Part shown: one piece after another, positions 31,155-63,413 of the stretch
Position numbering within the stretch: position 1 is the stretch's first letter
How the letters are laid out: every line of letters starts with the position of its first letter
Sequence record: OP114734.1
Strand: one strand, 5' to 3'
Length of the DNA stretch: 64,000 nt
From: Escherichia phage vB_ESM-pEJ01
The notes under the pieces: generated by a model
Database searches by the model: none
Seen by the model: only the letters and a program-made list of their open reading frames with translations
What the model was told of the DNA's origin: nothing
Made by a program: the position numbers and the translations under genes

Positions 31155-31772
31155 TTATTTATATTTCGCGACCTTTGGATTTCGCCGCAGACCGGAATGT
31201 ATTTGCGCTATACAACAATAAGAAACATTAAACATATCAGCTATAATTTGCTTCTTAACTTTTCCTTTAAGCCGCATTATTTCTTCGACTTGCGCATTTG
31301 TCAGTTTTGCCCGTGAGTGGTTTTCACCGACATTGTTATTGAGTCCAGTTCTAAATGAATGTCTCATATTTTCTAGTAAGGTTACTATTTCTAGATTCCA
31401 CACATAATTGCAGGTTTTTACACCATTGATGTGATTAACCTCAAGTCCGGTAACGTCTCCTAGAAATGCATTTGCTACAAGTCGATGTATCTTTTCGGCT
31501 TTAACTGAGATTTTACCATTGTCGTTTTGTTTTGACAATGTTGAATAATAATATCCATATCGGTCTAAAATTGGTTTTATTATTTTACCAGCACGTTTTT
31601 GTTTTACGAGCTTAATATTACCGGGAGAAACTTCTCTATAAAATTCGATACTTCGGTCAATAGATCTCAACCTACCATAATTAGAGATTTCATACCACGG
31701 ATAACCTACAGCTTGTCTCCATTCTTCCGGTGCTGGTAATATGATATTATCATCTTTTGTTTCCATTGTCAA
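31155..31772 (-). mobile_element. Homing endonuclease gene (NUMOD4 plus HNH, 205 aa)
   Basis: WYEISNYGRLRS (NUMOD4) and HINGVKTCNYVWNLE (HNH); inserted between 31 and cd-side genes. Confidence 0.7.
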
Positions 31773-44527: not shown

Positions 44528-44937
44528 CCTAATTCTTTTTCAATTTGTTTCTGGCGCTCTATGTCCTGAGTAATTTTGTATTTGTGTTCCGGTTCGTCGA
44601 TTTCATAAGCAACGTTATTAACCGGATCATAACCATCAATTCTATACCCCAATATAGGGTATTGTCGTTTTAATTTTATATTCAAAAGCTGTTCTATTGT
44701 GTCTAGTGCAATCTTTTCGGCAGCTGATAATCCAAAACGTATTCCAAAATATTGTTTCCTCACCGCTTCCGCAAGTTCTTCTGTTAAAATTATTTGCTTC
44801 TGTTTTCTACCATACACATCAAAATATTCACTATAATCATAACACAGACCTGTGTTTCTTGCAACCTTTTTTATGTCTCTAGTTACATGGGCATGACGTT
44901 TATTAAATTCTTTCGCAATATCCAGTGAGCTAATCAT
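44500..44937 (-). CDS. Rha-like N-terminal domain protein (145 aa)
   Basis: N-terminus LDIAKEFNKRHAHVTRDIKK resembles phage Rha family; C-terminal GYRIDGYD...EIDEPEHKYK. Confidence 0.4.
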   Translation of the reverse strand: MISSLDIAKEFNKRHAHVTRDIKKVARNTGLCYDYSEYFDVYGRKQKQIILTEELAEAVRKQYFGIRFGLSAAEKIALDTIEQLLNIKLKRQYPILGYRIDGYDPVNNVAYEIDEPEHKYKITQDIERQKQIEKELGCKFVRIKV

Positions 44938-44964
44938 TTTATCCTCCGTTGCTTAGATGAGTGT

Positions 44965-44992
44965 ATTATACATTACCACATCATCATGTCAA
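44965..44992 (-). promoter_or_regulatory. Early promoter (TTGACA-N16-TATAAT)
   Basis: Plus strand reads ATTATACATTACCACATCATCATGTCAA. Confidence 0.5.
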
Positions 44993-45023
44993 CACCTTTT
45001 CATAAAATTTTAGGCAATAAAAA

Positions 45024-45043
45024 AGCCTCCCCTAAGGAAGGCT
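45024..45043 (-). terminator. Intrinsic terminator after gene 32
   Basis: Stem AGCCTTCC/GGGGAGGCT with T-run on the - strand. Confidence 0.55.
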
Positions 45044-45053
45044 TTAAAATTCA

Positions 45054-46028
45054 TTACATCCCTAACAGAGCGTCAAGATCATCCAGATCAGAAGCGGAGG
45101 AAGTACCGCCACCCAGGTCCAGAGATGCCATCAGGTCATCAGCGGAAGAACTCGACGCTGCGATAGCTGCGGTAGAAACAGACGCGGCGATAGCTGAGGT
45201 AGTGCCAGCATCGAATGCATTCATCTGTGCGTCAAAATCGTCAAGCTGGCTGTTAATCGCTGCCGCAGCACTGGAAGCCGCCGCACCAGCTACCATAGAA
45301 ACGCCCATAGTTTTCTTAAATTTGGTTTCCAGTTCATCGAACGGTTTAAACTGGCTAGGCGCTACAATCTCACCCAGATCAACCATGTTTTCCATCAGAT
45401 ATTTCTGATATGCTTCGTCTTCAATCTTCGGAAGCTGTGATTGCTGCATGAAACGAGAATCATCATAGTTCTGGTGTTTATCAACCTTCTTAGCTTTCAG
45501 GAGGAAGTTAGCACCGGAGAACACACAAGTTACATCTACAGGAACTTCGCCCATATCGGTATTCACGTTCACCATTGCAACGATCTTATCATAAATTTTC
45601 TGACCGAAGCGGAATTTGAATACATTACCTTCATTTTCTGGTGCTTGAGGATCTTTCAGTACCAGAATATTTGCGTAGTAAGAGGCTTTACGCTTAATCA
45701 GTTGCCATTCGGTTTTATCGGTATTGTACAGGTCTTTTTCGTTAATATATTTGCACACAGGGCAAGAATCAAAATCACCGTGGGTGCTTGAGCAGTTTTC
45801 CCAATACCATTTACCATTAACTTTGAAGGAATGGTTTACCAGTTTCACAATCGGCAGACCGTCTTCTGTCTTAGACGGCAGGAAGCGAATCAGGGCTTCA
45901 CCGTTACCTGCTGCATCAGTCTTAATCTTCCACTCTTTCGGATCTTCTTTGGAGAAACCGTTGCCACCTTTCAGTGCGGCCAGTTGAGCTTGCAGTTTGG
46001 AAGAATCTTGACGACGAAACATGTTCAT
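45054..46028 (-). CDS. 32: Single-stranded DNA-binding protein gp32
   Basis: Aligns with T4 gp32 (FLPSK, zinc site CSSTHGDFDSCPVC, LYNTD); acidic C-terminal tail. Confidence 0.93.
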   Translation of the reverse strand: MNMFRRQDSSKLQAQLAALKGGNGFSKEDPKEWKIKTDAAGNGEALIRFLPSKTEDGLPIVKLVNHSFKVNGKWYWENCSSTHGDFDSCPVCKYINEKDLYNTDKTEWQLIKRKASYYANILVLKDPQAPENEGNVFKFRFGQKIYDKIVAMVNVNTDMGEVPVDVTCVFSGANFLLKAKKVDKHQNYDDSRFMQQSQLPKIEDEAYQKYLMENMVDLGEIVAPSQFKPFDELETKFKKTMGVSMVAGAAASSAAAAINSQLDDFDAQMNAFDAGTTSAIAASVSTAAIAASSSSADDLMASLDLGGGTSSASDLDDLDALLGM

Positions 46029-46088
46029 AATTATACCTCTTTATACATTAACTATTGATTAATTTACGTTTTATACTATATCAGATAC

Positions 46089-46685
46089 TTAATTGCTTGT
46101 CAATACTTTATCAATTATATCTAACAGTTTTGGCTTTCTATTTTCAAATTCTAACATCTCTTCGGGAGAAATGTCAACTACTTCTGTTTTGTTGAAAAAG
46201 TTTGGGTCTATAGCATCAGCAACAAAGTTTCTCGCAAGTGCTGCCGCTTTCTCATGAACATATATTCCCAAATATATCAACTTCTTTCTTTCGACCTGAA
46301 TATTGGCAACATATTTACCATCTCGTTTATAAAGACTAACACCGATATATTCAGACGATCGACCTTTCTGTTTACCCATATTTCTTGAGTTTTGTTGCTC
46401 GTTCGCATCTCTCAAGTTTTCAATCCGATTATCTGTTATAATTCGGTTAACATGGTCAACGTATTTTGGCATGTATCCATGATGCATAAAGAAAATTATT
46501 CTATGCTCTTTATGATGTTTACCATCGATACACACCAATCTGTATCCATGACTAGGATTAACTCCACCCGCTCTAGATCCGACTTTATGCTTTCGGTTTG
46601 TCGATATCTTGCGAATCAGCTTACCGTTATCATATTTAAAGAGTTCATGACAACGAGCATACAATTCAGGATCATATGTTTTCAC
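46089..46685 (-). mobile_element. HNH-AP2 homing endonuclease gene (198 aa)
   Basis: HNH motif VDHVNRIITDNRIENLR...QQN and AP2-like SEYIGVS...KYVANI; inserted between 32 and 59. Confidence 0.65.
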
Positions 46686-49634: not shown

Positions 49635-50216
49635 TCATCCTCTTTTTGGAAAATTTAAATAAGCATACTCGCCAACTATTTCATGTGCTGCACGGTCATA
49701 AGCCTTAGCCGCCTCAACTTCTGTCTCAAAGTATCCTAGATGTATATTCTTTCGATTGATAACAATATACGCCTTCCACGGCTTTTTCTTGCTTGGTGAT
49801 AATGATACACCTTTATATTTGCTATGGCAAGCCTTTTTCTTTGAGACGTTAAACTGATTTTGCTGTTCGGTTGCTTCTCTCATGTTTGACGGTCTATTGT
49901 TAGTTTTGTCTTGGTCTATGTGATCTATTCGTTCAACCTGAGTACCATACTCTAAAAACCAGACAACTCTATGTACAAACAGATTAAGTTTATGACCATT
50001 GTTGTAAAATGTAAAGTATAAATATCCTTCTTTATGGAGACATACCCTTACCACATCACCTTTTTTGTATATGGACCCTTCTTTTCGGAATCCAGCAGCT
50101 ACAGAATCCTTTAAATGGTATAATATTCCATCGACATGATAGAATCTACCTTTTATCGCTTTCTGTGTCTCGATATCCCAAAATTTTGTTTTTGCCACAA
50201 CAAACACCTCACACAA
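49635..50216 (-). mobile_element. HNH-AP2 homing endonuclease gene (193 aa)
   Basis: HIDQDKTNNRPSNMR...QQN (HNH) and YKGVS...WKAYI...GYFETEVEAAKAYD (AP2); inserted between rnh and 34. Confidence 0.65.
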
Positions 50217-50250: not shown

Positions 50251-53200
50251 ATGGCAGATTTTTCTCAACATTTCAAGGCCACCTTTGGCTTTGACGCTGG
50301 TAATGAAAAGGTCGTCAATGTAGCATACGCAGATAAAAACACATCAACGGATGCGGTCAACGTTGAATTTTTCAATTACCATAATGGTATTACTCAGTAT
50401 GACACAACTCGCGGTTATGATCAATACGGAACTACAATCTATCAAAACCGTCCGTATTATGCAAAAGAAGATATCACAAAGCCAGCAGGTGATTTTGACC
50501 CGACTAAATGGCAAGCACTGCGCACGGACCCACGTTGGGATTATGTTGCAGCAACTTCCGGCGATACTCCTTTAAAGTCTGGTGATTATATCGCAGCGGA
50601 CTGTCAGTTTGCAAACTTGACATTCTCAATGCCTACTAATCCGGCAGAGGGAGACACTATAACAGTAAAAGATATCGGTGGCAAGTGTGGTGTTAACGAA
50701 TTATCGTTCTTGAGTACAGGACATGAGTTTTACCATAACGGTAATGTGTACAACCGAAAATGGTATTGCACTACCCCGTATGCAATGAACTATTTCATCT
50801 TTGTTCGTAATCGTTGGCATGTTTATCAGACAGGAACAGAGCCACGCGGTGTGTACGCACAGCCAGCGATTGATGCTATTCAAATGCAGAATGGTGATCA
50901 GGTATTTCGTCGTAGTTCGTTGGGTAATATTACCTTAGTGCTTCCTAAGTTTGCCAACAATGGCGACATGATCCAGACTACAGACCTTGACGGATTAACC
51001 GCAACCAACCACGTTACGGTTAAAGTTCATGAGCACGCAGAAGAACAATCAATTGGCACGTCCGGTCTAAAAGAGATTATCGGTAAGCGTAGCGGTCATG
51101 GTGTATTCATCTTTGACAAGACGGAAAACTTATGGCGTTTGTGGGATGGTGATCAGTCTGTTCGTCTTAAACCGATCATCGATGACACTCGCTTGCAACC
51201 TAATAGCTATGTTGCTGTATTTGGTGATCGTGATGTTACTCTGACGCTGCCGACCAATGTCGAGCCGGGTGATCGTATTCAAGTTTCTATGCAGTATATG
51301 AACGGAAACCAGAATTGCCGTATTATCACCGCCACAGAGGATACAAAAATCCTTATGCAGAAAAACATGGTTCAGTTTCCTAAGCGTAGCGAGTACCCAT
51401 TCAATGGGACCGATACATGGACGGGAGTATCTGAATTGTCTTTCAACGCTGCAAATGATTATGTACCTTATGTGGAGTTCTCTTATTCAGAAGGTGATGA
51501 TGGTAAGAAATACTGGTTGGTGGCACATGCTCACCCGATTGTAGAACGAGTAGATCCGACTCGTAAAGATCGTGTTGGTGTAATTGCACTGGCTACCCAA
51601 ACTGAAACGAATAAAAACCATGAAGAGAATCCTAGCGACGAAGTTGCAGTAACACCAAAAATGCTGGCTAATAAAACCGCCAACGAAACTCGACGCGGTA
51701 TTGCTCGCATTGCGACTCAAGCGGAAACGCATCAAGATACTGGTTCCAACTTCCTGGATGATGTTATCGTTACGCCTAAAAAGTTAAATGACTGTGTTGC
51801 TACCGAAGCCCGTCGTGGTGTGATGGAAATTGCAACCCAGCACGAAACCAATGAAGGTTTAGACGATACCCGCGCTATTACTCCTAAGAAATTAGAAGAA
51901 CGTCGCGCTTCCGAAGATCTCGCTGGTATTGCTGAAATTGTTCAGGCTGGCGGCAGTGCTGCCGCTCGACGTGGCGAAGCTGGTACAGGGATCTATAACA
52001 TCAATGACCATGCTAAAATTGTTACGCCAAAAAACATCAACGAAGTCAAGGCGACCGAAACTTCCCGTGGTGTTGGCTATCTGGCAACTGACGCGGAAGT
52101 GCAAGGGGCTACAGAATCAACCCCGCAAGATGCTTTACTCATCACGACTCGCACGCTAACGAAACGTACTGCTACCGAATCGCGCACTGGTATCGCTGAA
52201 ATTGCAACTCAGGAAGAAACAAACTTAGGTCAAAGTGATAACCATATCATCACGCCTAAAAAGCTGCATACTCGCCGAGCAACGGAAACTTTACACGGTT
52301 TAGCAGAAATTGCAACTCAACCGGAGTTTGACGCAGGTCGTGACGATTCTCGCATTTCTACCCCATTGAAGATTAAAACCTTCTTTGAGAATGCACAGCG
52401 TTTGAAAGTAGATCCGACTCAGGGGCTTAACCTTACTGGTGATTTGTGGCAAGGTATCATGATCAGCGGTCTGGATGCAACCGAAGACACAAAAGGTGTC
52501 GCTAAAGTTGCGACTACTCAGCTTACTGACGCTGGTCAAGATGATACTACAATCATCACGCCTAAAAAGCTGCAAGGCAAGAAGGCCACCGAAGGTAAAG
52601 AAGGCATTATCCGAGTTGGTACTCAAGCCGAAACCGTGGCTGGTATTATGGACAATGTAGCAATTTCTCCGAAGAACTTCAAATATGTTGTTCAGACAGA
52701 GGATACATGGAAAGCAACCGAAGCGCGTCGTGGCTTCTTGAAAGTTGCTACTCAGGAAAACTGTTTTGTTGGTGATAATCTGCAAGGTTCTACTCAAGAA
52801 CTAGGAAACTACCAGCATGACGGAATTGCTGTTACCCCTAAAGGATTAAACTACGCACTTGCTAATTTCTTACCTAAGATGGCAACCGCTCAGAATAGTT
52901 TGAAATTAGGTAACGTAGAGGCCGCTAAATGGGCGCGTAGAGACATTGACCAGACCATAGAGAGCAATTACACGTTTAATAAAAACGTTAACGTGAAGGG
53001 CGATTTAGAGTGCTTAAAATCAGGTTCCTTTGAAACTCTGTCTGTGACTAAGAACTCGACCGATGTTCCGAGTAATGGTCATCTGGTGTTGGGTGAGCGT
53101 GGAGTTGACGGTCACACCGGAATTACTCTGCATGGCACAACCGCATCGGAAGGCATGAAAAACTCTTGGTCTATTATCGTTGGTGGTACTGGAACAGCGC

Positions 53201-53991
53201 AAGTTGTTGATAGTGATGCTATCGCTTTCGGTAAAATCAATGATGGTGGAGTCGTTCAGCATTACGCCTTTGCTATGAAACACAATGGCGATGTGACAGC
53301 ATATAGAGACTTTATTGCAGGTCGTAACCTGTATGCGAAACAAGGCGGGTTATACATTGTTGACCAGTCTAATCCGGCAATGACTCGTTCCCCAGATGGT
53401 ATGCTGAATATCGGTCACGGTGGAAGTGTTAACATCAAGGCAGGTCATCAAACGTTAACTACAGAGATCGCCGGACAGAAATATCAGATCGTACACGCAG
53501 GAAACGCTGACGAAGTTCTTAACCGTCAGTTTGTTAAGAATGCTGGCGATACAATGGTCGGTAAGCTGACTATGGATAATGCGCCTATTGTTTCCGTTAA
53601 GCATGAAGCTAGCGCGGCAACCGCTCCGGCAATCGGTAACATCGGTTTCTGGAATATGCGAGTTACTACCCAGAACATCAAAGAAACTTATCCAGAGAAG
53701 AAAAACGGTACTCTGATGCAATGGGGTACTGACGCGGACGGGCTTACCCAGCTTTGGTCCCCTGATGGTACTCATAAACATTATATCCGTTCCGGTACTG
53801 GTGGTCAATGGACAGCATGGGGTGAAATTTACACCAAACAGAATAAGCCTACCGCTCAGGAAATCGGGGCAGTAGTTGCAGAAGGTGGTTTAATGAACTC
53901 TATGACGGTTCGTGATTGGATCAAAGTTGGTAATGTTAAAATCATCGCCAATAATCTGACTCGTACCGTAGACTTTATCTGGGAAGACTAA
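50251..53991 (+). CDS. 34: Long tail fibre proximal subunit gp34
   Basis: 1246 aa; N-terminus matches T4 gp34 pattern; repeated TPKKL units. Confidence 0.9.
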   Translation: MADFSQHFKATFGFDAGNEKVVNVAYADKNTSTDAVNVEFFNYHNGITQYDTTRGYDQYGTTIYQNRPYYAKEDITKPAGDFDPTKWQALRTDPRWDYVAATSGDTPLKSGDYIAADCQFANLTFSMPTNPAEGDTITVKDIGGKCGVNELSFLSTGHEFYHNGNVYNRKWYCTTPYAMNYFIFVRNRWHVYQTGTEPRGVYAQPAIDAIQMQNGDQVFRRSSLGNITLVLPKFANNGDMIQTTDLDGLTATNHVTVKVHEHAEEQSIGTSGLKEIIGKRSGHGVFIFDKTENLWRLWDGDQSVRLKPIIDDTRLQPNSYVAVFGDRDVTLTLPTNVEPGDRIQVSMQYMNGNQNCRIITATEDTKILMQKNMVQFPKRSEYPFNGTDTWTGVSELSFNAANDYVPYVEFSYSEGDDGKKYWLVAHAHPIVERVDPTRKDRVGVIALATQTETNKNHEENPSDEVAVTPKMLANKTANETRRGIARIATQAETHQDTGSNFLDDVIVTPKKLNDCVATEARRGVMEIATQHETNEGLDDTRAITPKKLEERRASEDLAGIAEIVQAGGSAAARRGEAGTGIYNINDHAKIVTPKNINEVKATETSRGVGYLATDAEVQGATESTPQDALLITTRTLTKRTATESRTGIAEIATQEETNLGQSDNHIITPKKLHTRRATETLHGLAEIATQPEFDAGRDDSRISTPLKIKTFFENAQRLKVDPTQGLNLTGDLWQGIMISGLDATEDTKGVAKVATTQLTDAGQDDTTIITPKKLQGKKATEGKEGIIRVGTQAETVAGIMDNVAISPKNFKYVVQTEDTWKATEARRGFLKVATQENCFVGDNLQGSTQELGNYQHDGIAVTPKGLNYALANFLPKMATAQNSLKLGNVEAAKWARRDIDQTIESNYTFNKNVNVKGDLECLKSGSFETLSVTKNSTDVPSNGHLVLGERGVDGHTGITLHGTTASEGMKNSWSIIVGGTGTAQVVDSDAIAFGKINDGGVVQHYAFAMKHNGDVTAYRDFIAGRNLYAKQGGLYIVDQSNPAMTRSPDGMLNIGHGGSVNIKAGHQTLTTEIAGQKYQIVHAGNADEVLNRQFVKNAGDTMVGKLTMDNAPIVSVKHEASAATAPAIGNIGFWNMRVTTQNIKETYPEKKNGTLMQWGTDADGLTQLWSPDGTHKHYIRSGTGGQWTAWGEIYTKQNKPTAQEIGAVVAEGGLMNSMTVRDWIKVGNVKIIANNLTRTVDFIWED

Positions 53992-53996
53992 TTAAA

Positions 53997-54012
53997 GGGG
54001 GCGAAAGCCCCC
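53997..54012 (+). other. GNRA-tetraloop hairpin between genes 34 and 35
   Basis: GGGGGC-GAAA-GCCCCC directly after the gene 34 stop; no T-run. Confidence 0.45.
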
Positions 54013-54024
54013 TATGGGGTTATT

Positions 54025-55164
54025 ATGACACAAGATATAGAATTACGCAACACTGGAATTAGGTTTGCGCATTTCGACGAAGACTCTGCGACATTTACCA
54101 GCATTTCAGAAAATAACTCTGTGATGTATAAGCTGGAAGTGCGCGGATCTAATGCGGATTCTACCAAACCAGCAAGGATTAGATTTAATGGAGTGGAGAT
54201 CGTTGGCACTGGCTATGAAAATGGCCTAAATTTTAAAGTTCTTACTCCAACTGGACAACTACACGAAGAAAAGGTATTCTATGGTCGCGGTGCTGTTTTG
54301 GCAATGCGTGATTATCTTTCTTTGCTGAAAGGTGACTATATCATTGCGATGGCAACGCATGGAGAATTGTTTGCAGATCCGATCAGTGATGGTGTATTCT
54401 CTAAGCTGGGATCTGTATCATTCCCGAATCACATTTTGCTACAGCAAATGCCTCGTGTATCATATGCAGCAATTTATTCTACTAAAATGGGTAAAATTGT
54501 GTGCGAAGGGATGCAAGCAACTCACGGGGAAGGACAAGATTCATCTATACAAATTGAGAAAGTCTATGATACTATAGATGATCTTGCTATAACAGGAACA
54601 CCACAACGATTTTTAGATTATCCGGTTGAGTATGTTAGCGAAGATGCCGAACATTTCGAGCTAATACAATGGCCTCATGATGAGACCAGCGCCCCACTTG
54701 AGGATTTTAACATAAAGGCAGGTGACAAACTATCAATATCCTTTGAATTGTTCCGTGATAGTGCCGCAGCCGCAGCCAACGTAACAGCGCGTTTCTATCA
54801 CAACTACTTCACCGATGGACAATATCAAACTGGTGTTCGATACAATGCCAGCAAAAAAGACCAATGGGAAAAGTTTGAAGCCGTCTATACCGTACCGGAA
54901 GGAGTTGATAGTGTAGTAACTGGTTGTATCAGATATCCAACCAACTCCAATGAAGGTATTGTTAAAATTAGAAACATACTAATAACGCCGATCAGTGGAG
55001 TCGTCAAAACTACTGGTCCTACTTCATTTGGTGTTAATGGTGTTAGAACAACTCATATTCAGGATAACGGTGATTTTACTAACCCTGTAATGAGTCTTCT
55101 TAAACTACCCAGAGATAATAAACACATCACATCCAACAACTTTAAAGAGTTCGATGTTGATTAA
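54025..55164 (+). CDS. 35: Long tail fibre hinge protein gp35
   Basis: 379 aa (T4 gp35 372 aa); synteny. Confidence 0.8.
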   Translation: MTQDIELRNTGIRFAHFDEDSATFTSISENNSVMYKLEVRGSNADSTKPARIRFNGVEIVGTGYENGLNFKVLTPTGQLHEEKVFYGRGAVLAMRDYLSLLKGDYIIAMATHGELFADPISDGVFSKLGSVSFPNHILLQQMPRVSYAAIYSTKMGKIVCEGMQATHGEGQDSSIQIEKVYDTIDDLAITGTPQRFLDYPVEYVSEDAEHFELIQWPHDETSAPLEDFNIKAGDKLSISFELFRDSAAAAANVTARFYHNYFTDGQYQTGVRYNASKKDQWEKFEAVYTVPEGVDSVVTGCIRYPTNSNEGIVKIRNILITPISGVVKTTGPTSFGVNGVRTTHIQDNGDFTNPVMSLLKLPRDNKHITSNNFKEFDVD

Positions 55165-55175
55165 CATTTTTAACA

Positions 55176-55205
55176 AGCCGATCCATGTGGTCGGCTTTAT
55201 TTTTA
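55176..55205 (+). terminator. Intrinsic terminator after gene 35
   Basis: Stem AGCCGATCC/GGTCGGCT followed by TTATTTTTAT. Confidence 0.55.
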
Positions 55206-55325: not shown

Positions 55326-55333
55326 TATAAATA
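55326..55333 (+). promoter_or_regulatory. T4-type late promoter box TATAAATA upstream of gene 36
   Basis: Exact TATAAATA about 34 nt upstream of the gene 36 ATG. Confidence 0.6.
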
Positions 55334-55366: not shown

Positions 55367-56857
55367 ATGGCAGATTTGAAATATGGATCTACTGTAGGTG
55401 GATCTCCCATTTGGACGCAAGGAAACTTGACGATCCAGCCAGCAGGGGATCAGCTTTTCTACAAAGGTCATAAAATCTATACCGCTTTTGATAGACCTTC
55501 GGCTACCGATTTTGATGCTGTTAGTGCATCCGAAGGTGGCACATTTCAAAAGCAAGTTCATTTCGAGGAAGGTTTAAGCGTAGGTAGCGCATCGGCAGGT
55601 GAAACCAAAAAGAATGGTATCTTTAAAGGTCAGAGCGACGCTGCTAATTTTGACGGCGTAAGCTGGGGTTTGCATTCATGGAAGTCAATCGGCTTTGTTA
55701 ATGCCCGTGATGGCGTTATTATGGCGTATATTGACACCACAACGGGCGAATTTAAGTCTAAAGGGACTATCGAAGGGACAACCATTAAAGACACAGGTCA
55801 ACGCGTCTATAGCCCTGTTAATAAACCAACGAATAATGATTTGGATTTAGTTTCCCGTCGCGGTGATACTCTCTCAGGAACGTATAATTTAAACACTGTC
55901 ACTGTTAAACTATCGGTTGATTCGAAATTAATTGCAAGGGAACGTGATTTAATTAATTTTGATGCGACTAAGATCTATTATGGTAACGTTCTTGATACGT
56001 TGGTCTTCCGAAGTAAAGATGAGCCTACCATTTTTGTTAATGGCAAAGAAGGTCGTTTTTATCACACCAACAATAAACCAACTAAAGCCGATGTTGGGCT
56101 AGGCAATGTCACCAATGATGCACAGGTTAAACGTGCTGGTGATATTATGGAAGGTAACTTGCAAGCGCCTAGAATGTTGGCGACAAACGATCCTGCTGGT
56201 CCTAATGAATTGGTTCGTTTGAGCTACTTTGAGAGAAAATCAATGGTAGCAAATCCAACCATCATTGGAAACGTTGATTGGAACACTCTTATTAATCGCG
56301 GTATCTATCGTGTGGAAAATGCTGGGTCGGGTACTAATAAACCGTCTGATAGCTATTATAATGGCGTTTTGATGGTATATCGCCCAGAAGATGCGGTCGG
56401 TACTCGTCGAATTGTTCAGGTGTATTATCCTGAATCTATTGACCATCCGATGTGCTGGCGTTCGTGTTCTAATGAATCATGGACTGCATGGAACTATGTA
56501 GATCACCGTAAATTAGCCGATATTCGCTATGTTAACGTAACTGGCGATACCATGACAGGACCGTTAACTGTTCCGGCTGTAAACGGTGTTAGAACAGCTA
56601 AAACTAACTATAACGGGGATAACTGTTATGCGGCGTTAAGCGGTGCTGATGGTACTGCTATGATTCACCGCATTAGTGATATTAAAGGGACCGAAAAGCT
56701 GGGGATCACCCACGACTCAAAGGTCGTGTTTTTCCGTTCTCGAAACAATACTCAAACCGTGGACCGCTATCAGCTTTATCATGAAGGTAATAAACCTACT
56801 CCGGCTGATGTTGGAGCGGTTCCACTTAATGCGGTGATTGATTTTGGTACTTTCTAA
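55367..56857 (+). CDS. 36: Long tail fibre distal connector gp36 (enlarged, 496 aa)
   Basis: N-terminus MADLKYGSTVGGSPIWTQGN matches T4 gp36; longer than T4's 221 aa. Confidence 0.8.
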   Translation: MADLKYGSTVGGSPIWTQGNLTIQPAGDQLFYKGHKIYTAFDRPSATDFDAVSASEGGTFQKQVHFEEGLSVGSASAGETKKNGIFKGQSDAANFDGVSWGLHSWKSIGFVNARDGVIMAYIDTTTGEFKSKGTIEGTTIKDTGQRVYSPVNKPTNNDLDLVSRRGDTLSGTYNLNTVTVKLSVDSKLIARERDLINFDATKIYYGNVLDTLVFRSKDEPTIFVNGKEGRFYHTNNKPTKADVGLGNVTNDAQVKRAGDIMEGNLQAPRMLATNDPAGPNELVRLSYFERKSMVANPTIIGNVDWNTLINRGIYRVENAGSGTNKPSDSYYNGVLMVYRPEDAVGTRRIVQVYYPESIDHPMCWRSCSNESWTAWNYVDHRKLADIRYVNVTGDTMTGPLTVPAVNGVRTAKTNYNGDNCYAALSGADGTAMIHRISDIKGTEKLGITHDSKVVFFRSRNNTQTVDRYQLYHEGNKPTPADVGAVPLNAVIDFGTF

Positions 56858-56861
56858 TTTT

Positions 56862-56888
56862 AGCGGGGATTATCTCCCCGCTTTTCTA
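56862..56888 (+). terminator. Terminator-like hairpin between genes 36 and 37
   Basis: AGCGGGGA-TTATC-TCCCCGCT followed by TTTTCT. Confidence 0.45.
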
Positions 56889-56927: not shown

Positions 56928-59834
56928 ATGGCAGATTTAAGCAGAATCCAATTTAAACGCACTAGCACTAAAGGTCGTAAACCGGATGCTAGTACGATGA
57001 ATCCGGGGGAATTGGCAATCAACCTTGCGGATCAATATCTTCTTACTAAAAATGATTCCGGTACTATTATCAATTTAAGTTGTCCTCCGGTTTATGACCG
57101 CGATGTTACAATGGCGGGTAAGGTTAAAGGTAATAATTATATCTTAAGTAAAACCGCTAACTATCTGGAAGATCAGACAGCGAGAGATCTTAACTACTTT
57201 GGCGCTTTCCGTACCAATGGTCTTGATGGTCTTCTCGAACTCACGCTAAACGTTCCTCACTCTTCCGGTGTCCAGCATGGTCGAGGATTTACTTTCCAGT
57301 ATGGACATACTGGATCACGAGTAGAAACCTATGGATACAATAAAGAAGGTCAAAAAGCATTTAGCTATAAAATGTATCACGAAGGTGATAAACCTACTCC
57401 CTCAGAATTGAACGTTTATAGCAAACAAGAAATTGACAGAATGTTTATTAAAAACGTTAAAATGTCTGTTCCTTCCGGTGACGCAACTCGTGGTTACTTT
57501 AAGATCGCGACCGCAATGATTCCGCAGAATGGTCGAATGGCATTTTTACGGATTTACGGCGGAAACGGATATAATGTTAACTCCTACGATCAGGTGGATT
57601 TCCTTGAAATTGTGATTCGTGGTGGTAATAATAACCCTAAAGGTGTTAGTATTGCTGCATATCGTCGTAATTCTTTGAACGTCCATGAAGTATTTGCAAT
57701 TAATACTTCCGGTGATAACTATGACATTTATGTTAACTATGGTCGTTACACCGATAACGTTATTGTAGAGTTTGGAAAAACTGTTGATGTTGCATTGACT
57801 GTTCACGATGTTCCTGAATTTTCGGCGACTAAACCCGCAACCGGAACTAAATTTGATGCTCGTGTTATTACGATGTTCAACACCGAAAACAAAGCCGGAA
57901 CGTTGATGTTTGATAATAACGGTCAAGGAACATATGATATTATCAGCTTGAATAACTCGACTGATAGCAATAAAAAATATCTTCGTAAGTTTCGTAGCAA
58001 ATCCGCAGAAACAATATGGCATGAGGTTGTCGAGGGTAGCGTATATCGTTTAGCTACTGGTTTTACTGATACAGCGGATCAATTAAAAATTGATTTTAAT
58101 GGTGTTACTGTAAACCGCCTTTTTGTTAAGGGTAATAACGCTATTAGAATGGAACGCCGCGACGGGCAAAGTAACTATATCGAATTCTTTGATTATCGTT
58201 CTGGTGCTAATCGTCGTCAGGGTTATCTAGGTTATGGTGATGGTACTACTAACACTGTACAGTTAGTAAATGAATTAACGGAAGGTAATAACTCTGTAAG
58301 ACTGGATGAGAACGGTCAAGTTTCATTATCCACAGGTAAAACAAAAATTGTATACACAAACGGCGAATATGTTGCTGCATACGCTAACGCATTCCGTATG
58401 ATCTACGGAAACTATGGTGCATTCTGGCGTAATGATGGTGGTAAAATTTATCTTCTGTCTACTGCCGAAAATGATAAATTTGGTAGCTGGAACGGCAACC
58501 GACCATTCATTTATTATTTGACTACCGGTAAAGTTACTTTAGGTGGTGATGGTAACGAAGGTGCATTAGTTCTCGAAAGAGATAGCCGTGCGGCTAGATT
58601 TGCAGGTGACATTTACGTCGGTAAAGGAATGCTAACCTTTGATGCTGGTCGATTAAATTCCCGCGATTACTTCCGGTTTAACCATTGGGGCGATAGCAAT
58701 AACGGTCGCGATAACATCCTACAGATTGAAGACAGTCAGGGCGCACATTTTATCACTGAACGTGCTATGGGTACTGGTAACATAACAGCACGTTTTAAAG
58801 GCTTTGTACGTGTAGAATCTGGTGAAATTGCATTTGATGCTAATCGGGGGTCGCAGTCTCAATTTACCTTACATACATGGGGTAACGAGCAACGCAAACA
58901 GGTTTTTGAATGTAAGGATGCTACAAGTTATCACTGGTATACTGAACGTACTCAGGGTGGCACTGGACCTATTCTGTTCTCTATGGCGGGTAGTCTAAAC
59001 GTTGGTAGCAATATCACAACAACTGGTGCTGATATTACGTTTAAACGCGCTGGCAATAAGCACATCTGGTTTAGAGATCCAGACGGTTTAGAGTTAGGCT
59101 TGATGTACTGCGATGATGCTGGTGTTATTCGCTTCCGTGGTCAGAAACAAGCCCAGGCGTGGAAACTTGCGGATAAGATGATTCATCTTGAATCTGGTAG
59201 CGTCGGCGGGTCTGATAAAGGTTTGATTCGTGGTAGTGTTGCTGGTGGTAGTTGGGCTGGCTGGCGTGACCGTGCTTCCGGTTTACAAGTTGATTGTCCT
59301 CAATCAACCAATTCCGCTCATAACATCTGGAAAGCTACTCATTGGGGTCAATATCATATTGCGGCAATGGGTGTACACGTTCCTGATGGTACTATCGGAA
59401 ATGCTATGGTGCGTATGCACGTACACGATGCAACTTTTGACTTTAGCGCAACTGGTGATTTCCAAGCAGGTCGTAACGGTAATTTTAACGATGTTTACAT
59501 TCGCTCTGATGCTCGCCTGAAAATCAATAAGGAAGAGTATAAGGAGAATGCCACCGATAAAGTTAATCGCTTGACGGTATACACCTATGACAAGGTTAAA
59601 TCTTTAACCGACCGTACTGTCATTGCCCATGAAGTTGGCATTATCGCACAGGATCTTGAGAAAGAATTGCCGGAAGCAGTAACAACTTCTAAGGTTGGCG
59701 ATCCAGATAAACCAGAAGAGATCTTAACAATTTCTAACTCTGCTGTCAACGCTCTTTTAATTAAGGCGTTTCAGGAAATGAGCGAAGAATTGAAAGCCGT
59801 TAAAGCTGAACTAGCGGAACTTAAAAAGAATTAA
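56928..59834 (+). CDS. 37: Long tail fibre distal subunit gp37 with C-terminal intramolecular-chaperone-like domain
   Basis: N-terminus LSRIQFKRTSTKGRKPDAS...GELAINL like T4 gp37; C-terminus has SDARLKINK and coiled coil. Confidence 0.8.
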   Translation: MADLSRIQFKRTSTKGRKPDASTMNPGELAINLADQYLLTKNDSGTIINLSCPPVYDRDVTMAGKVKGNNYILSKTANYLEDQTARDLNYFGAFRTNGLDGLLELTLNVPHSSGVQHGRGFTFQYGHTGSRVETYGYNKEGQKAFSYKMYHEGDKPTPSELNVYSKQEIDRMFIKNVKMSVPSGDATRGYFKIATAMIPQNGRMAFLRIYGGNGYNVNSYDQVDFLEIVIRGGNNNPKGVSIAAYRRNSLNVHEVFAINTSGDNYDIYVNYGRYTDNVIVEFGKTVDVALTVHDVPEFSATKPATGTKFDARVITMFNTENKAGTLMFDNNGQGTYDIISLNNSTDSNKKYLRKFRSKSAETIWHEVVEGSVYRLATGFTDTADQLKIDFNGVTVNRLFVKGNNAIRMERRDGQSNYIEFFDYRSGANRRQGYLGYGDGTTNTVQLVNELTEGNNSVRLDENGQVSLSTGKTKIVYTNGEYVAAYANAFRMIYGNYGAFWRNDGGKIYLLSTAENDKFGSWNGNRPFIYYLTTGKVTLGGDGNEGALVLERDSRAARFAGDIYVGKGMLTFDAGRLNSRDYFRFNHWGDSNNGRDNILQIEDSQGAHFITERAMGTGNITARFKGFVRVESGEIAFDANRGSQSQFTLHTWGNEQRKQVFECKDATSYHWYTERTQGGTGPILFSMAGSLNVGSNITTTGADITFKRAGNKHIWFRDPDGLELGLMYCDDAGVIRFRGQKQAQAWKLADKMIHLESGSVGGSDKGLIRGSVAGGSWAGWRDRASGLQVDCPQSTNSAHNIWKATHWGQYHIAAMGVHVPDGTIGNAMVRMHVHDATFDFSATGDFQAGRNGNFNDVYIRSDARLKINKEEYKENATDKVNRLTVYTYDKVKSLTDRTVIAHEVGIIAQDLEKELPEAVTTSKVGDPDKPEEILTISNSAVNALLIKAFQEMSEELKAVKAELAELKKN

Positions 59835-59875
59835 GGAAAATTCCCAGGGAAGGGAACTACTAAGGAGAAACGGCT

Positions 59876-60115
59876 ATGGTCTATAATATCGTCATTGGTG
59901 CTTTGTCTAATTTCGGAATGAAATTATTGTCAAAGTTAATTAGTGAAAAGATGCTCACTAAAATTTTCTTCTATTGCGCTCGTCGTCTTGCGGCTTATAC
60001 CAATACGCCAATTGATGATCGTTTTGTGGAAGAACTTTATAAGGAGTTTAATAAAGATCAGTCAGAAGATAGTAACGAGCAAGATAAACCTAGTGATAGT
60101 CAACTACCTAAATAA
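59876..60115 (+). CDS. Hypothetical small protein (79 aa) in the gp38 position
   Basis: AGGAG ribosome-binding site; hydrophobic N-terminus, acidic C-terminus; too small for gp38. Confidence 0.45.
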   Translation: MVYNIVIGALSNFGMKLLSKLISEKMLTKIFFYCARRLAAYTNTPIDDRFVEELYKEFNKDQSEDSNEQDKPSDSQLPK

Positions 60116-60148: not shown

Positions 60149-60805
60149 ATGCAAGTTTCTGAAAAAGGGAAAGACTTTGCTATCTCAAATGTCCTGCGCG
60201 CTATTTTCACAACTAAAAGCACGGAGTTGCTCGTACTTCGTGTTTTTGCTGCCGTCGTGTTGTCCATATTAGCATTTGTCGTTTATAGTAAAAACGAGTT
60301 ATTTGCGCTTTATAAAGAGACTCGTTATGAGACTTATGCTCACATTCTCCAGGTAGAGAAAGACCGCAATTTTGATAATGCAGCACAGGAGCAGTTACAG
60401 ATAGTTCATGTGTCGGCTGATGCCGATTTTTCTGCTGTTTTTAGCTTTCGTCCGAAAAACCTAAACTATTTTGTTGATTTGGTGGCATATGAAGGAAAGC
60501 TACCGCATACGATCGATGAAAAGAATTTAGGCGGGTTCCCTATCAATAAAACGAGTGAAGAATATCGTAGGCATCTTTTAGGTAAATCATATTTTACCGA
60601 TAAAGATTTCCAGTATATTCCATCGAGGGAGAAAAAATTAGAGAATATCGATATAGGGTTTATGTATTCTTGTCCTATATTCAATCTCGATAATGTCTAT
60701 TCTGGTAGTATCGCCATTGCATGGAAGAATAAACCGGATATTGACATTGAGAATTTGGATACTCTTTGCAATCAATCTGCCAGAATCCTCGGAAGGATTA
60801 GATAA
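60149..60805 (+). CDS. t: Holin T
   Basis: 218 aa, same length as T4 T; LEQLQIVH.S.EADFSAV.SFRPKNLNYFVD and YSCPYFNLDN-like motifs. Confidence 0.92.
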   Translation: MQVSEKGKDFAISNVLRAIFTTKSTELLVLRVFAAVVLSILAFVVYSKNELFALYKETRYETYAHILQVEKDRNFDNAAQEQLQIVHVSADADFSAVFSFRPKNLNYFVDLVAYEGKLPHTIDEKNLGGFPINKTSEEYRRHLLGKSYFTDKDFQYIPSREKKLENIDIGFMYSCPIFNLDNVYSGSIAIAWKNKPDIDIENLDTLCNQSARILGRIR

Positions 60806-60810
60806 CTTAA

Positions 60811-60842
60811 AGGGGAAGCCTTTCGGCCTCCCCTTCTTTTTT
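60811..60842. terminator. Bidirectional intrinsic terminator after t
   Basis: Stem AGGGGAAGCC-TTTC-GGCCTCCCCT followed by TTCTTTTTT. Confidence 0.6.
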
Positions 60843-62654: not shown

Positions 62655-63413
62655 TTACTTGCAAACGTATTGATCTACATCAATTGCTCCACCGAATGTA
62701 GGATGACGTTTTTCAAATCGAATAGTTCCGTCGTTTGGTTCGAAAACGGAGTATTCATATAGATCTTTCTTGCCAACATTCTTATAAAACCCGCCTTTAG
62801 TCATAACGGTTTCTTGTACGTTTGCTTTGTGTACGTTGTATTCGTCAATGTATACAAAATCAACCATCTTCCCATTTTTAATGGTTACTTTAAGATCTCC
62901 TGGTTGATTTCCATATTTGGCATACAGTGGCGCTTCTTTAATTTTTGTGGAAATTCCATCTTTCATACTCCACTCATAACGAACGGTGCATTGATAGGTA
63001 AAAGTTTCGACCTTCGGTTCTTCCACCACTTTTTCTTCCTGTTTCGGTTGTTCTTCTTCAACCTTCGCAGAAGTCTCTGAATCGCTTTCTGACGCGGTTT
63101 CTTCTTTAGGTAATACATTCATCAAGTTTTGGATTTGAGCGTTGTATACAGCCTCCAGTGGCTGAATCTGCCCGATATTGATCATTGTATCACGAACAGT
63201 TTTATTCCAGTTGCGTTGCTCTTGTTTAAGAGACGGATCAATCTTAACAGCCTTAACATACACCTCATGAAGTTTCGAATCCAGTGCTGAGATTGACTCA
63301 TTAGCACAAATAAACTTCTCTGATTTGGTAGTGGCTTTAGCGCAATCAAAGGACGCAGCATTAGCACCGAAAGCAGTAGCGGAAATAACGATAGCAGCGA
63401 TAATGTTTTTCAT
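62655..63413 (-). CDS. Secreted protein with DUF1311/LprI-like N-terminal domain (252 aa)
   Basis: Signal peptide MKNIIAAIVISATAFGANA; SFDCAKATTKSEKFICANE pattern; acidic linker. Confidence 0.5.
   Translation of the reverse strand: MKNIIAAIVISATAFGANAASFDCAKATTKSEKFICANESISALDSKLHEVYVKAVKIDPSLKQEQRNWNKTVRDTMINIGQIQPLEAVYNAQIQNLMNVLPKEETASESDSETSAKVEEEQPKQEEKVVEEPKVETFTYQCTVRYEWSMKDGISTKIKEAPLYAKYGNQPGDLKVTIKNGKMVDFVYIDEYNVHKANVQETVMTKGGFYKNVGKKDLYEYSVFEPNDGTIRFEKRHPTFGGAIDVDQYVCK

Follow-up and report, generated by a model that had tools for sequence, protein, structure and literature searches.

A Peptidase_S74 chaperone domain at the end of gp37 and a probably displaced g38 in a Krischvirus tail fibre region

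Introduction

The long tail fibre region of Escherichia phage vB_ESM-pEJ01 (OP114734.1) raises the question of whether a distal fibre subunit with a chaperone-like C-terminus, encoded by a gene that no gp38-sized gene follows, dispenses with gp38, and if it does not, what occupies the place of g38 and where gp38 would be encoded. The stretch of DNA analysed here (64 kb in full, hereafter the window) comes from a Krischvirus with ∼96% identity to RB49, with which it shares the gene order 34-35-36-37-Dc5-t, the window differing in an extra HNH-AP2 endonuclease gene directly upstream of g34. Work by Desplats dating from 2002 is reportedly among the sources that name RB49 gp37, Dc5, t, and the displaced g38. 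All features of the window given below lie on the + strand.

The gene 37 product and its C-terminal domain

Gene 37 (56928..59834) is an ORF of 968 aa that encodes the long tail fibre distal subunit as a precursor of 107.6 kDa, and its product matches phrog_1699 (long tail fiber distal subunit) with E=1e-188 and RB49 gp37 with 78% amino acid identity overall. The N-terminal 76 aa, which form the junction with gp36, are conserved with T4 gp37 at 42% identity; aa 1–76 alone align, and no counterpart of the T4 gp37 C-terminal needle and receptor-binding domain was found in the gp37 of the window. The shaft contains a Gp34_trimer-type domain at aa 452–529 (58281..58514; Pfam PF21446, E=2.4e-26), which among PDB sequences matches T4 gp34 (4uxe, E=1.2e-13) and the Mu tail fibre S protein (5yvq), and this was the sole match when full-length gp37 was compared with the PDB by phmmer. 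Identity to RB49 varies along the protein, with only 40–55% in shaft residues 361–480 and 601–720, 78–90% (in 40-aa blocks) in the distal tip at aa 721–859, and ∼99% in the C-terminal domain.

The C-terminal 109 residues (aa 860–968, 12.2 kDa, 59505..59831) are a genuine Peptidase_S74 intramolecular chaperone, placed at the extreme C-terminus as in trimeric fibre and spike proteins. The first-pass annotation had read this end of the protein as chaperone-like, with SDARLKINK followed by a helix, and comparison with S74 profiles bears this out: Pfam Peptidase_S74 (PF13884) covers aa 860–919 with E=1.5e-11 and 44.8 bits (cut-off 22), SDARLKINK occupies aa 860–868 (59505–59531), and the terminal helix of the AF2 model spans aa 937–967 (59736–59828) with pLDDT >87. 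The monomer model has a pLDDT of 80 overall and >87 within the domain, and in a Foldseek search with it the top 11 PDB matches were all intramolecular chaperone structures (probability 0.99–1.00), namely the MyRF ICA (7dc3, E=1.6e-5), endoNF (3gw6), and GA-1 (3gud), whose fold combines beta-hairpins with a long C-terminal helix. A profile of the domain similarly matched S16 gp37 (6f45_A, E=3.6e-16), MyRF (7dc3), and GA-1 (3gud), homology to solved structures being visible only in searches with the C-terminal fragment or a profile. PDB 6F45 is the gp37-gp38 tip of Salmonella phage S16, as described by Dunne in 2018. A profile match to the Mu tail fibre S protein was set aside, as it is probably due to two aligned prophage sequences that resemble Mu S.

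The domain begins with the catalytic serine and, five residues on, the lysine of the S-D-x-R-x-K motif (S860 and K865). Across 20 homologues, residues S860, D861, K865, and N867 do not vary, and the S860/K865 motif aligns with SDRRIK of S16, SDERHK of GA-1, and the motif of MyRF. The fold is the same as that of the K1F endosialidase (3GW6), the GA-1 neck appendage (3GUD), and the MyRF ICA (7DC3), and the Ser/Lys motif and the C-terminal position after a trimeric fibre are shared with the Peptidase S74 domains of K1F, GA-1, T5 pb1, and MyRF. S16 gp37 likewise has a homologous chaperone at its end, and the cleavage motifs of the two proteins align. Compared with T4, folding of gp37 would here proceed through a cis-acting chaperone domain.

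The small ORF between gene 37 and the holin gene

As the first-pass annotation had stated, a 79-aa ORF (59876..60115; "Dc5" in RB49) is the only one between the stop of g37 (59834) and the start of t (60149). It is preceded by an AAGGAG Shine-Dalgarno sequence and belongs to phrog_402. S16 and T2-like phages have g38 directly downstream of g37, whereas this slot in the window holds instead an ORF resembling gp l of phage PM2. The ORF itself had no match in NCBIfam or in Pfam, the Pfam set searched being one without the PF26925 model; PF26925 (Phage_PM2_Gpl) is, in turn, precomputed on homologues of the ORF with 35–92% identity to it, and hhalign of the ORF against PM2 gp l gave 94.4% probability and E=8.4e-8 over 43 columns. 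A homologue is likewise found between g37 and t in a distant T4-like contig (L013). Gene t (60149..60805) encodes a holin (Pfam Phage_holin_T, E=2e-61), which lies downstream in T4 as well.

PM2 P18 (gp l) is an accessory lysis protein that takes part in outer-membrane disruption, a function known only in PM2 (PMC6356626). Judged from its sequence relationships, the 79-aa ORF is probably a lysis accessory gene belonging to the same cassette as t, and not a fibre chaperone. A more specific proposal, that it is the functional counterpart of PM2 P18, serving accessory lysis together with holin t and conserved between g37 and the holin gene in Krischvirus and in distant T4-like phages, is put forward tentatively. 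The ORF might otherwise be a small dedicated fibre-assembly factor in place of the T4 gp38 chaperone: it sits in the g38 slot, in several distant contigs it comes after a gene for a gp37-like protein, one of these proteins (in L011) lacking any recorded S74 domain, and a chaperone role for small post-g37 ORFs has been raised in Aeh1 (Trojet 2011, PMC3157838). This is quite unlikely, however, given the profile homology to an accessory lysis protein, the fact that the next gene downstream always encodes either holin t or a lysis-like single-TM coiled-coil protein, and its lack of similarity to T4 gp38 or Tfa-type chaperones.

Co-transcription of the 79-aa ORF with t, as a probable lysis gene, would fit the signals in this region. 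No hairpin was found between the genes in the interior of the g37-ORF79-t unit (z=0.05), and a strong hairpin after t (60810..60835, −21.1 kcal/mol), followed by the U-run UUCUUUUUUAUU, is likely the terminator that closes the unit. Further upstream, the two hairpins of the first-pass annotation, at 34/35 and 36/37, were both recovered, the former without a U-tract. The g34/g35 hairpin (53996..54013) has a GNRA loop (AGGGGGC-GAAA-GCCCCCU, −17.3 kcal/mol, z=−2.6), and the one after g36 (56862..56882) is terminator-like, with −14.8 kcal/mol, z=−4.15, and a UUUUCU tail. A terminator-like hairpin with a U-rich tail after g35 (35/36; 55175..55197) had been overlooked, and a late-promoter box, TATAAATA, lies beyond it and upstream of g36 (55326–55333). 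That the hairpins tune the ratios of fibre subunits, as the first-pass annotation suggested, is speculative. In RB49 the intergenic hairpins compared have the same or almost the same sequence, with full identity at 34/35 and 36/37, and outside the hairpins the intergenic regions compared differ by only a few point changes; because RB49 is identical across them, the hairpins receive no support from covariation.

Predicted self-cleavage of gp37

An S74 domain with its catalytic Ser/Lys pair makes self-cleavage of gp37 very likely. Conservation and alignment to known sites would place the cut at R859^S860 (DVYIR^SDARLKI, 59502..59507), which is predicted to release 109 residues. In alignments, S860 corresponds to residue 1 (SDERHK) of GA-1 chain 3gud as deposited, and it also matches the S16 site DLNVS^SDRRIKK and the fPS site DVYIR^SDGRLKI (both from PMC7917993). 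S16 gp37 is reported to be cleaved, which exposes the docking surface for gp38, and the site in the T2-like fPS phages was derived through alignment (PMC7917993).

The S74-like domain could alternatively remain uncleaved, as a C-terminal knob of the mature fibre, with gp38, if present, binding elsewhere, and a literature search found no experimental cleavage of a Krischvirus gp37, nor evidence of its processing from virion proteomics or N-terminal sequencing. An uncleaved knob is nevertheless very unlikely: the catalytic Ser and Lys do not vary among the homologues, nor does the motif around them, which is nearly the same as that of the alignment-derived fPS site and lines up with the S16 site for which cleavage is reported, and S860 falls where the deposited GA-1 chain starts. 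With self-cleavage retained as the preferred reading, aa 721–859 (59088..59504) would become the distal tip of mature gp37 and, by analogy with S16 (PMC7917993), may serve, after departure of the chaperone, as the surface on which gp38 docks. The sequence just N-terminal of the chaperone domain shows no resemblance to the tip of S16 gp37, and no notable sequence similarity was found between the pre-cleavage tip and the gp37 tip of PaulHMueller, a T2-like Tequatrovirus; since the tip is unlike both, sequence gives no support for a conserved gp38 docking surface. The gp38 of PaulHMueller, for its part, is 90% identical to that of RB49.

The location of gp38

Neither kind of gp38 was found in the 64-kb window, in keeping with the gp38-less interval between gene 37 and t described by the first-pass annotation. 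A tblastn search of the window with RB49 gp38 gave no match at E≤10, none of the ORFs of the window contains the poly-Gly (GRM) motifs typical of gp38, and a tblastn search with T4 gp38 gave nothing significant (best E 1.8) in the window or in RB49, of which positions 1–100000 and 131717–164018 were searched, the window covering the equivalent of the gap. By these searches, neither the window nor the RB49 sequence covered encodes a gp38 chaperone of the T4 type, a difference from T4.

A gp38 of the other kind is present in relatives. RB49 gp38 (RB49p079, 45367–46143) matches Pfam GP38 (E=7e-72) and Gp38_N (E=6e-18), the same adhesin family as in S16 and T2-type phages, and a gp38 adhesin of 258–261 aa (PF05268 and PF21721) is encoded in all complete Krischvirus relatives checked. 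In these, g38 is displaced to a locus between rI/tk and dam that lies ∼54 kb downstream of t and maps outside the window. Full-length homologues occur in GoldenSnicker, AV108, PHB13, TB34, SAP, JSE, ECD7, ELT3, Cognac, and Whisky, and gp38 is found at the syntenic displaced locus also in FL37, W115, and Brandy. By analogy with these relatives, g38 would be located in the part of the genome beyond the window. The general fibre chaperone gp57A, common to T4 and RB49, is RB49p127 in the latter.

The first-pass annotation had proposed that the fibre folds with a built-in chaperone rather than gp38, and had named a gp38 homologue found in another part of the genome as evidence to the contrary. The first half of the proposal holds in that the S74 domain is real and a T4-type gp38 is absent; the second half is not supported, given that relatives encode a T2-type gp38, a displaced GP38-family adhesin whose locus lies beyond the window. 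The gp38 of T4 is a chaperone and that of T2 and S16 an adhesin, the two being unrelated, and S16 has both a built-in chaperone and a gp38, so that a built-in chaperone as a stand-in for gp38 is unsupported. The pairing of chaperone domain and gp38 is on record for S16 and, by alignment, for the T2-like fPS phages (PMC7917993). Similarly, gp37 of RB49 carries a C-terminal chaperone that cleaves itself off, after which a gp38 monomer caps the fibre, and point mutations in RB49 gp38 alter the host range (Efimov 2022, PMC9569957), and the displacement of RB49 g38, with a small ORF occupying its slot, has been described (Trojet 2011, PMC3157838).

That the built-in chaperone wholly replaces gp38, with the cleaved gp37 tip contacting the receptor itself in the manner of T5 pb1 or the endosialidase of K1F, agrees with the lack of both gp38 types in the window and with chaperone-bearing fibres and spikes documented without a separate adhesin, for example the T5 L-shaped fibre pb1 (PMC4690869), but is extremely unlikely in view of the gp38 gene that all the complete relatives checked (∼96% nucleotide identity here) encode at a locus outside the window, the RB49 host-range mutations that map to gp38 (PMC9569957), and the close identity of the chaperone domain and the pre-cleavage tip to those of RB49.

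Model of the fibre tip and implications

We consider it highly probable that the fibre tip is of the RB49 type, with a self-cleaved S74 chaperone, a T2/S16-type gp38 cap from a displaced g38, and the 79-aa ORF associated with t. In this model, gp37 would be synthesised as a 968-aa precursor whose last 109 residues, the S74 chaperone, nucleate trimer formation and folding in the fibre ahead of them. Cleavage at R859^S860 by the Ser860/Lys865 dyad would follow and release the chaperone, and the exposed gp37 tip would be capped by a T2/S16-type gp38 adhesin, the real receptor-binding protein. The g38 gene would lie away from g37, at a displaced locus as in the relatives, and gp57A would also be encoded elsewhere. 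Once the domain has been released, K1F, GA-1, T5 pb1, and MyRF function with no additional adhesin, whereas a monomeric gp38 cap is expected here.

The combination of a self-cleaving gp37 chaperone, a displaced g38, and a small ORF in its slot is an already known and ordinary arrangement, because the chaperone domain is well known and the "missing" gp38 is an adhesin encoded at a distant locus in relatives. Its relevance lies mainly in annotation and host-range prediction, and the current picture of tail-fibre assembly is unchanged. The host-range determinant in Krischvirus would be gp38, encoded far from the fibre operon, and not the gp37 C-terminus, and reading the g34-t operon alone may lead to the choice of the wrong host-range protein or to gp38 being judged missing. 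The only mildly new lead is the relationship between a lysis protein of PM2 and the small ORF that occupies the g38 slot; if the proposed function is true, the lysis cassettes of T-even-type phages would hold an unrecognised component in common with PM2, a membrane-containing, non-tailed phage.

Organization of the fibre locus

The region 39001-64000 shares 95-96% nucleotide identity with complete Krischvirus genomes (GoldenSnicker, FL37, W115, RB49, and others), and the g37-t segment has matches in 61 phage records, every one RB49-like. The order g34 (50251-53991), g35 (54025-55164), g36 (55367-56857), g37 (56928-59834, with a 968-aa product), a 79-aa ORF (59876-60115), and the holin gene t (60149-60805) is the same in RB49, in which RB49p252 is the counterpart of the 79-aa ORF and dc5 (RB49p253) overlaps it in the same frame. 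As the first-pass annotation had observed, the 314 nt that separate g37 from t contain the 79-aa ORF alone and no gp38-sized gene.

The hairpins which that annotation placed at 34/35 and 36/37, with a speculative role in setting fibre subunit ratios, exist and are both stable, the one after g34 having no U-tract and the one after g36 ending in a UUUUCU tail; a third stable hairpin with a U-rich tail follows g35 and precedes a TATAAATA late-promoter box 5' of g36. All three are identical in RB49, with nearly identical flanking intergenic sequence, and covariation is consequently not assessable.

A 193-aa homing-endonuclease ORF (HNH_3 and AP2; 49635-50216, minus strand) lies between rnh and g34; since the corresponding interval of RB49 carries just a hypothetical ORF of 61 aa, the homing-endonuclease ORF is an insertion immediately 5' of the fibre operon. 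Two further HNH ORFs occur on the minus strand at 46089-46685 and 31155-31772 (the latter NUMOD4 and HNH). A weak ILEI-domain match below threshold (E = 6e-4) is obtained for the hinge protein gp35, and the gp35 homologue of the distant T4-like contig L013 has the same weak match in precomputed annotation.

The C-terminal chaperone domain of gp37

The motif SDARLKINK occupies aa 860-868 of gp37 (nt 59505-59531), and aa 860-919 match Pfam Peptidase_S74 ("chaperone of endosialidase") well over threshold (E = 1.5e-11). Across 20 aligned homologues, S860, D861, K865, and N867 do not vary, and an AlphaFold2 model of aa 800-968 has pLDDT >87 over the S74 domain and closes with a 31-residue helix, in agreement with the helical segment proposed earlier. 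In the PDB, each of the 11 best Foldseek matches is an intramolecular chaperone, namely the MyRF ICA domain (7dc3, E = 1.6e-5), the GA-1 neck appendage (3gud), or endosialidase (3gw6). The alignment profile matches the Salmonella phage S16 gp37 construct 6f45_A (E = 3.6e-16), and it pairs S860 with the first residue (SDERHK) of GA-1 chain 3gud as deposited. Because Pfam, residue invariance, the model, and the structural and profile matches concur, the chaperone-like domain recognized in the first pass is real, far beyond chance.

The S74 domain shares ~99% identity with its RB49 counterpart, and 40-aa blocks of the preceding tip share 78-90%. In the shaft, aa 361-480 and 601-720 (58008-58367 and 58728-59087) form two segments with only 40-55% identity to RB49, against 70-100% in 40-aa blocks for the rest of gp37 and ~96% at the nucleotide level for the genome; the shaft is mosaic or diversifying although gp38 is the adhesin. 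The shaft also contains a Gp34_trimer domain (aa 452-529, 58281-58514; E = 2.4e-26), which also occurs in Mu tail fibre S and in the C-terminal region of T4 gp34; this exemplifies the shuffling of domains between the distal and proximal subunits of the fibre.

A gp38 adhesin probably encoded elsewhere

The name gp38 covers two unrelated proteins, the T4 chaperone and the T2/S16 adhesin, which caps gp37 after cleavage has removed the chaperone domain. A tblastn search with T4 gp38, covering the window and most of the RB49 sequence (1-100000 and 131717-164018), gave nothing significant (best E = 1.8), and T4 gp37 is alignable over its first 76 residues only. For the T2/S16 type, the window contains no poly-Gly ORF and no tblastn match to RB49 gp38 at E ≤ 10. 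The RB49 gene is RB49p079 (45367-46143, recorded as "similar to T2 and RB69 gp38 adhesin"; Pfam GP38 E = 7e-72, Gp38_N E = 6e-18), which, on the permuted map, is reached ~54 kb after t ends, and the corresponding position here is not covered by the 64-kb window. Every relative examined has a full-length homologue: GoldenSnicker, AV108, PHB13, TB34, SAP, JSE, ECD7, ELT3, Cognac, and Whisky, together with FL37 (81526-82311), W115 (45412-46197), and Brandy (44824-45609). In the last three, the protein shares 73-78% identity with RB49 gp38 and the gene always lies between rI/tk and dam. The general fibre chaperone gp57A is present in RB49 (RB49p127). The proposal of a built-in chaperone rather than gp38 was half right: the observation is correct, gp37 brings its own chaperone, and a T4-type gp38 is lacking, but a gene for the gp38 adhesin almost certainly lies elsewhere in the genome of this phage.

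The displaced RB49 g38 (RB49 45280-46200, outside the window) is flanked on both sides by terminator-like hairpins, and immediately 5' of the gene there is no TATAAATA late promoter. The stem-loop and near-consensus sigma-70 promoter (TTGACA-N17-TATAAT) on its 3' side form a PeSL-type composite, a class of element through which modules are proposed to be shuffled in RB49/phi1 (PMC4122927).

The 79-aa ORF in the g38 position

The 79-aa ORF has a strong Shine-Dalgarno sequence; no stable hairpin separates g37, this ORF, and t, and a strong terminator-like hairpin (60810-60835) follows t. Database records label it hypothetical only, and it has no match in the local Pfam and NCBIfam libraries. Its homologues fall in the precomputed family PF26925 (Phage_PM2_Gpl), and a profile built from nine of the small homologues matches PM2 gp l in hhalign (94.4% probability, E = 8.4e-8), marking the 79-aa ORF as a homologue of corticovirus PM2 gp l. 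The product of ORF l is reportedly P18 (Krupovic 2007), and gp l is equated with P18 here. P17 and P18 are lysis proteins of PM2, and P18 aids outer membrane disintegration (PMC6356626). The order gp37 with S74, gp l-like ORF, and holin T is kept in L013; in another distant contig (L011), the gp l-like ORF lies 3' of a gp37-like protein for which no S74 domain is recorded, and a single-TM coiled-coil protein follows the ORF there as well as in a third contig (L009). The 79-aa ORF accordingly belongs more likely to the lysis cassette than to the fibre machinery, a reading of modest confidence because fibre and lysis genes adjoin in these phages and the context fits both roles. Beyond t, a 252-aa ORF (62655-63413, minus strand; RB49p262, hypothetical protein, in RB49) carries a domain of the lysozyme inhibitor LprI (E = 1.3e-5) and, by eye, a putative signal-peptide-like hydrophobic N-terminal stretch.

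Proposed maturation of the fibre tip

Both halves of the finding are in the literature, and the whole fibre-tip arrangement is already described for RB49-like phages (Trojet et al., 2011, PMC3157838; Efimov et al., 2022, PMC9569957; PMC7917993; PMC12032242). In RB49, g38 has moved away and a small ORF occupies its former place (Trojet et al., 2011), and gp37 has a C-terminal chaperone that cleaves itself off before gp38 attaches (Efimov et al., 2022). The last 113 residues of S16 gp37 are autocleaved at DLNVS^SDRRIKK, exposing the gp38 docking surface, and T2-like fPS phages have DVYIR^SDGRLKI at the aligned position (PMC7917993), compared with DVYIR^SDARLKI here. In Krischvirus, gp38 variants set Tsx/OmpA/OmpF recognition experimentally, and FL37 g38 is not holin-adjacent (PMC12032242); the gp38 substitutions E230K, and E230K with Y231S, alter host range (Efimov et al., 2022). 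A literature search returned no proteomic evidence of gp37 processing in a Krischvirus. The pre-cleavage tip of gp37 does not resemble that of S16 and has no notable similarity to that of the Tequatrovirus PaulHMueller, so the gp38 docking step lacks sequence support; PaulHMueller gp38 is 90% identical to RB49 gp38.

In the proposed pathway, the 107.6-kDa gp37 precursor would trimerise with the aid of its S74 domain and probably also of gp57A, after which Ser860, activated by Lys865, would cut the R859-S860 bond. The 12.2-kDa chaperone trimer would then depart, and the mature 95.5-kDa fibre would be capped by one gp38 adhesin supplied from a distant gene.
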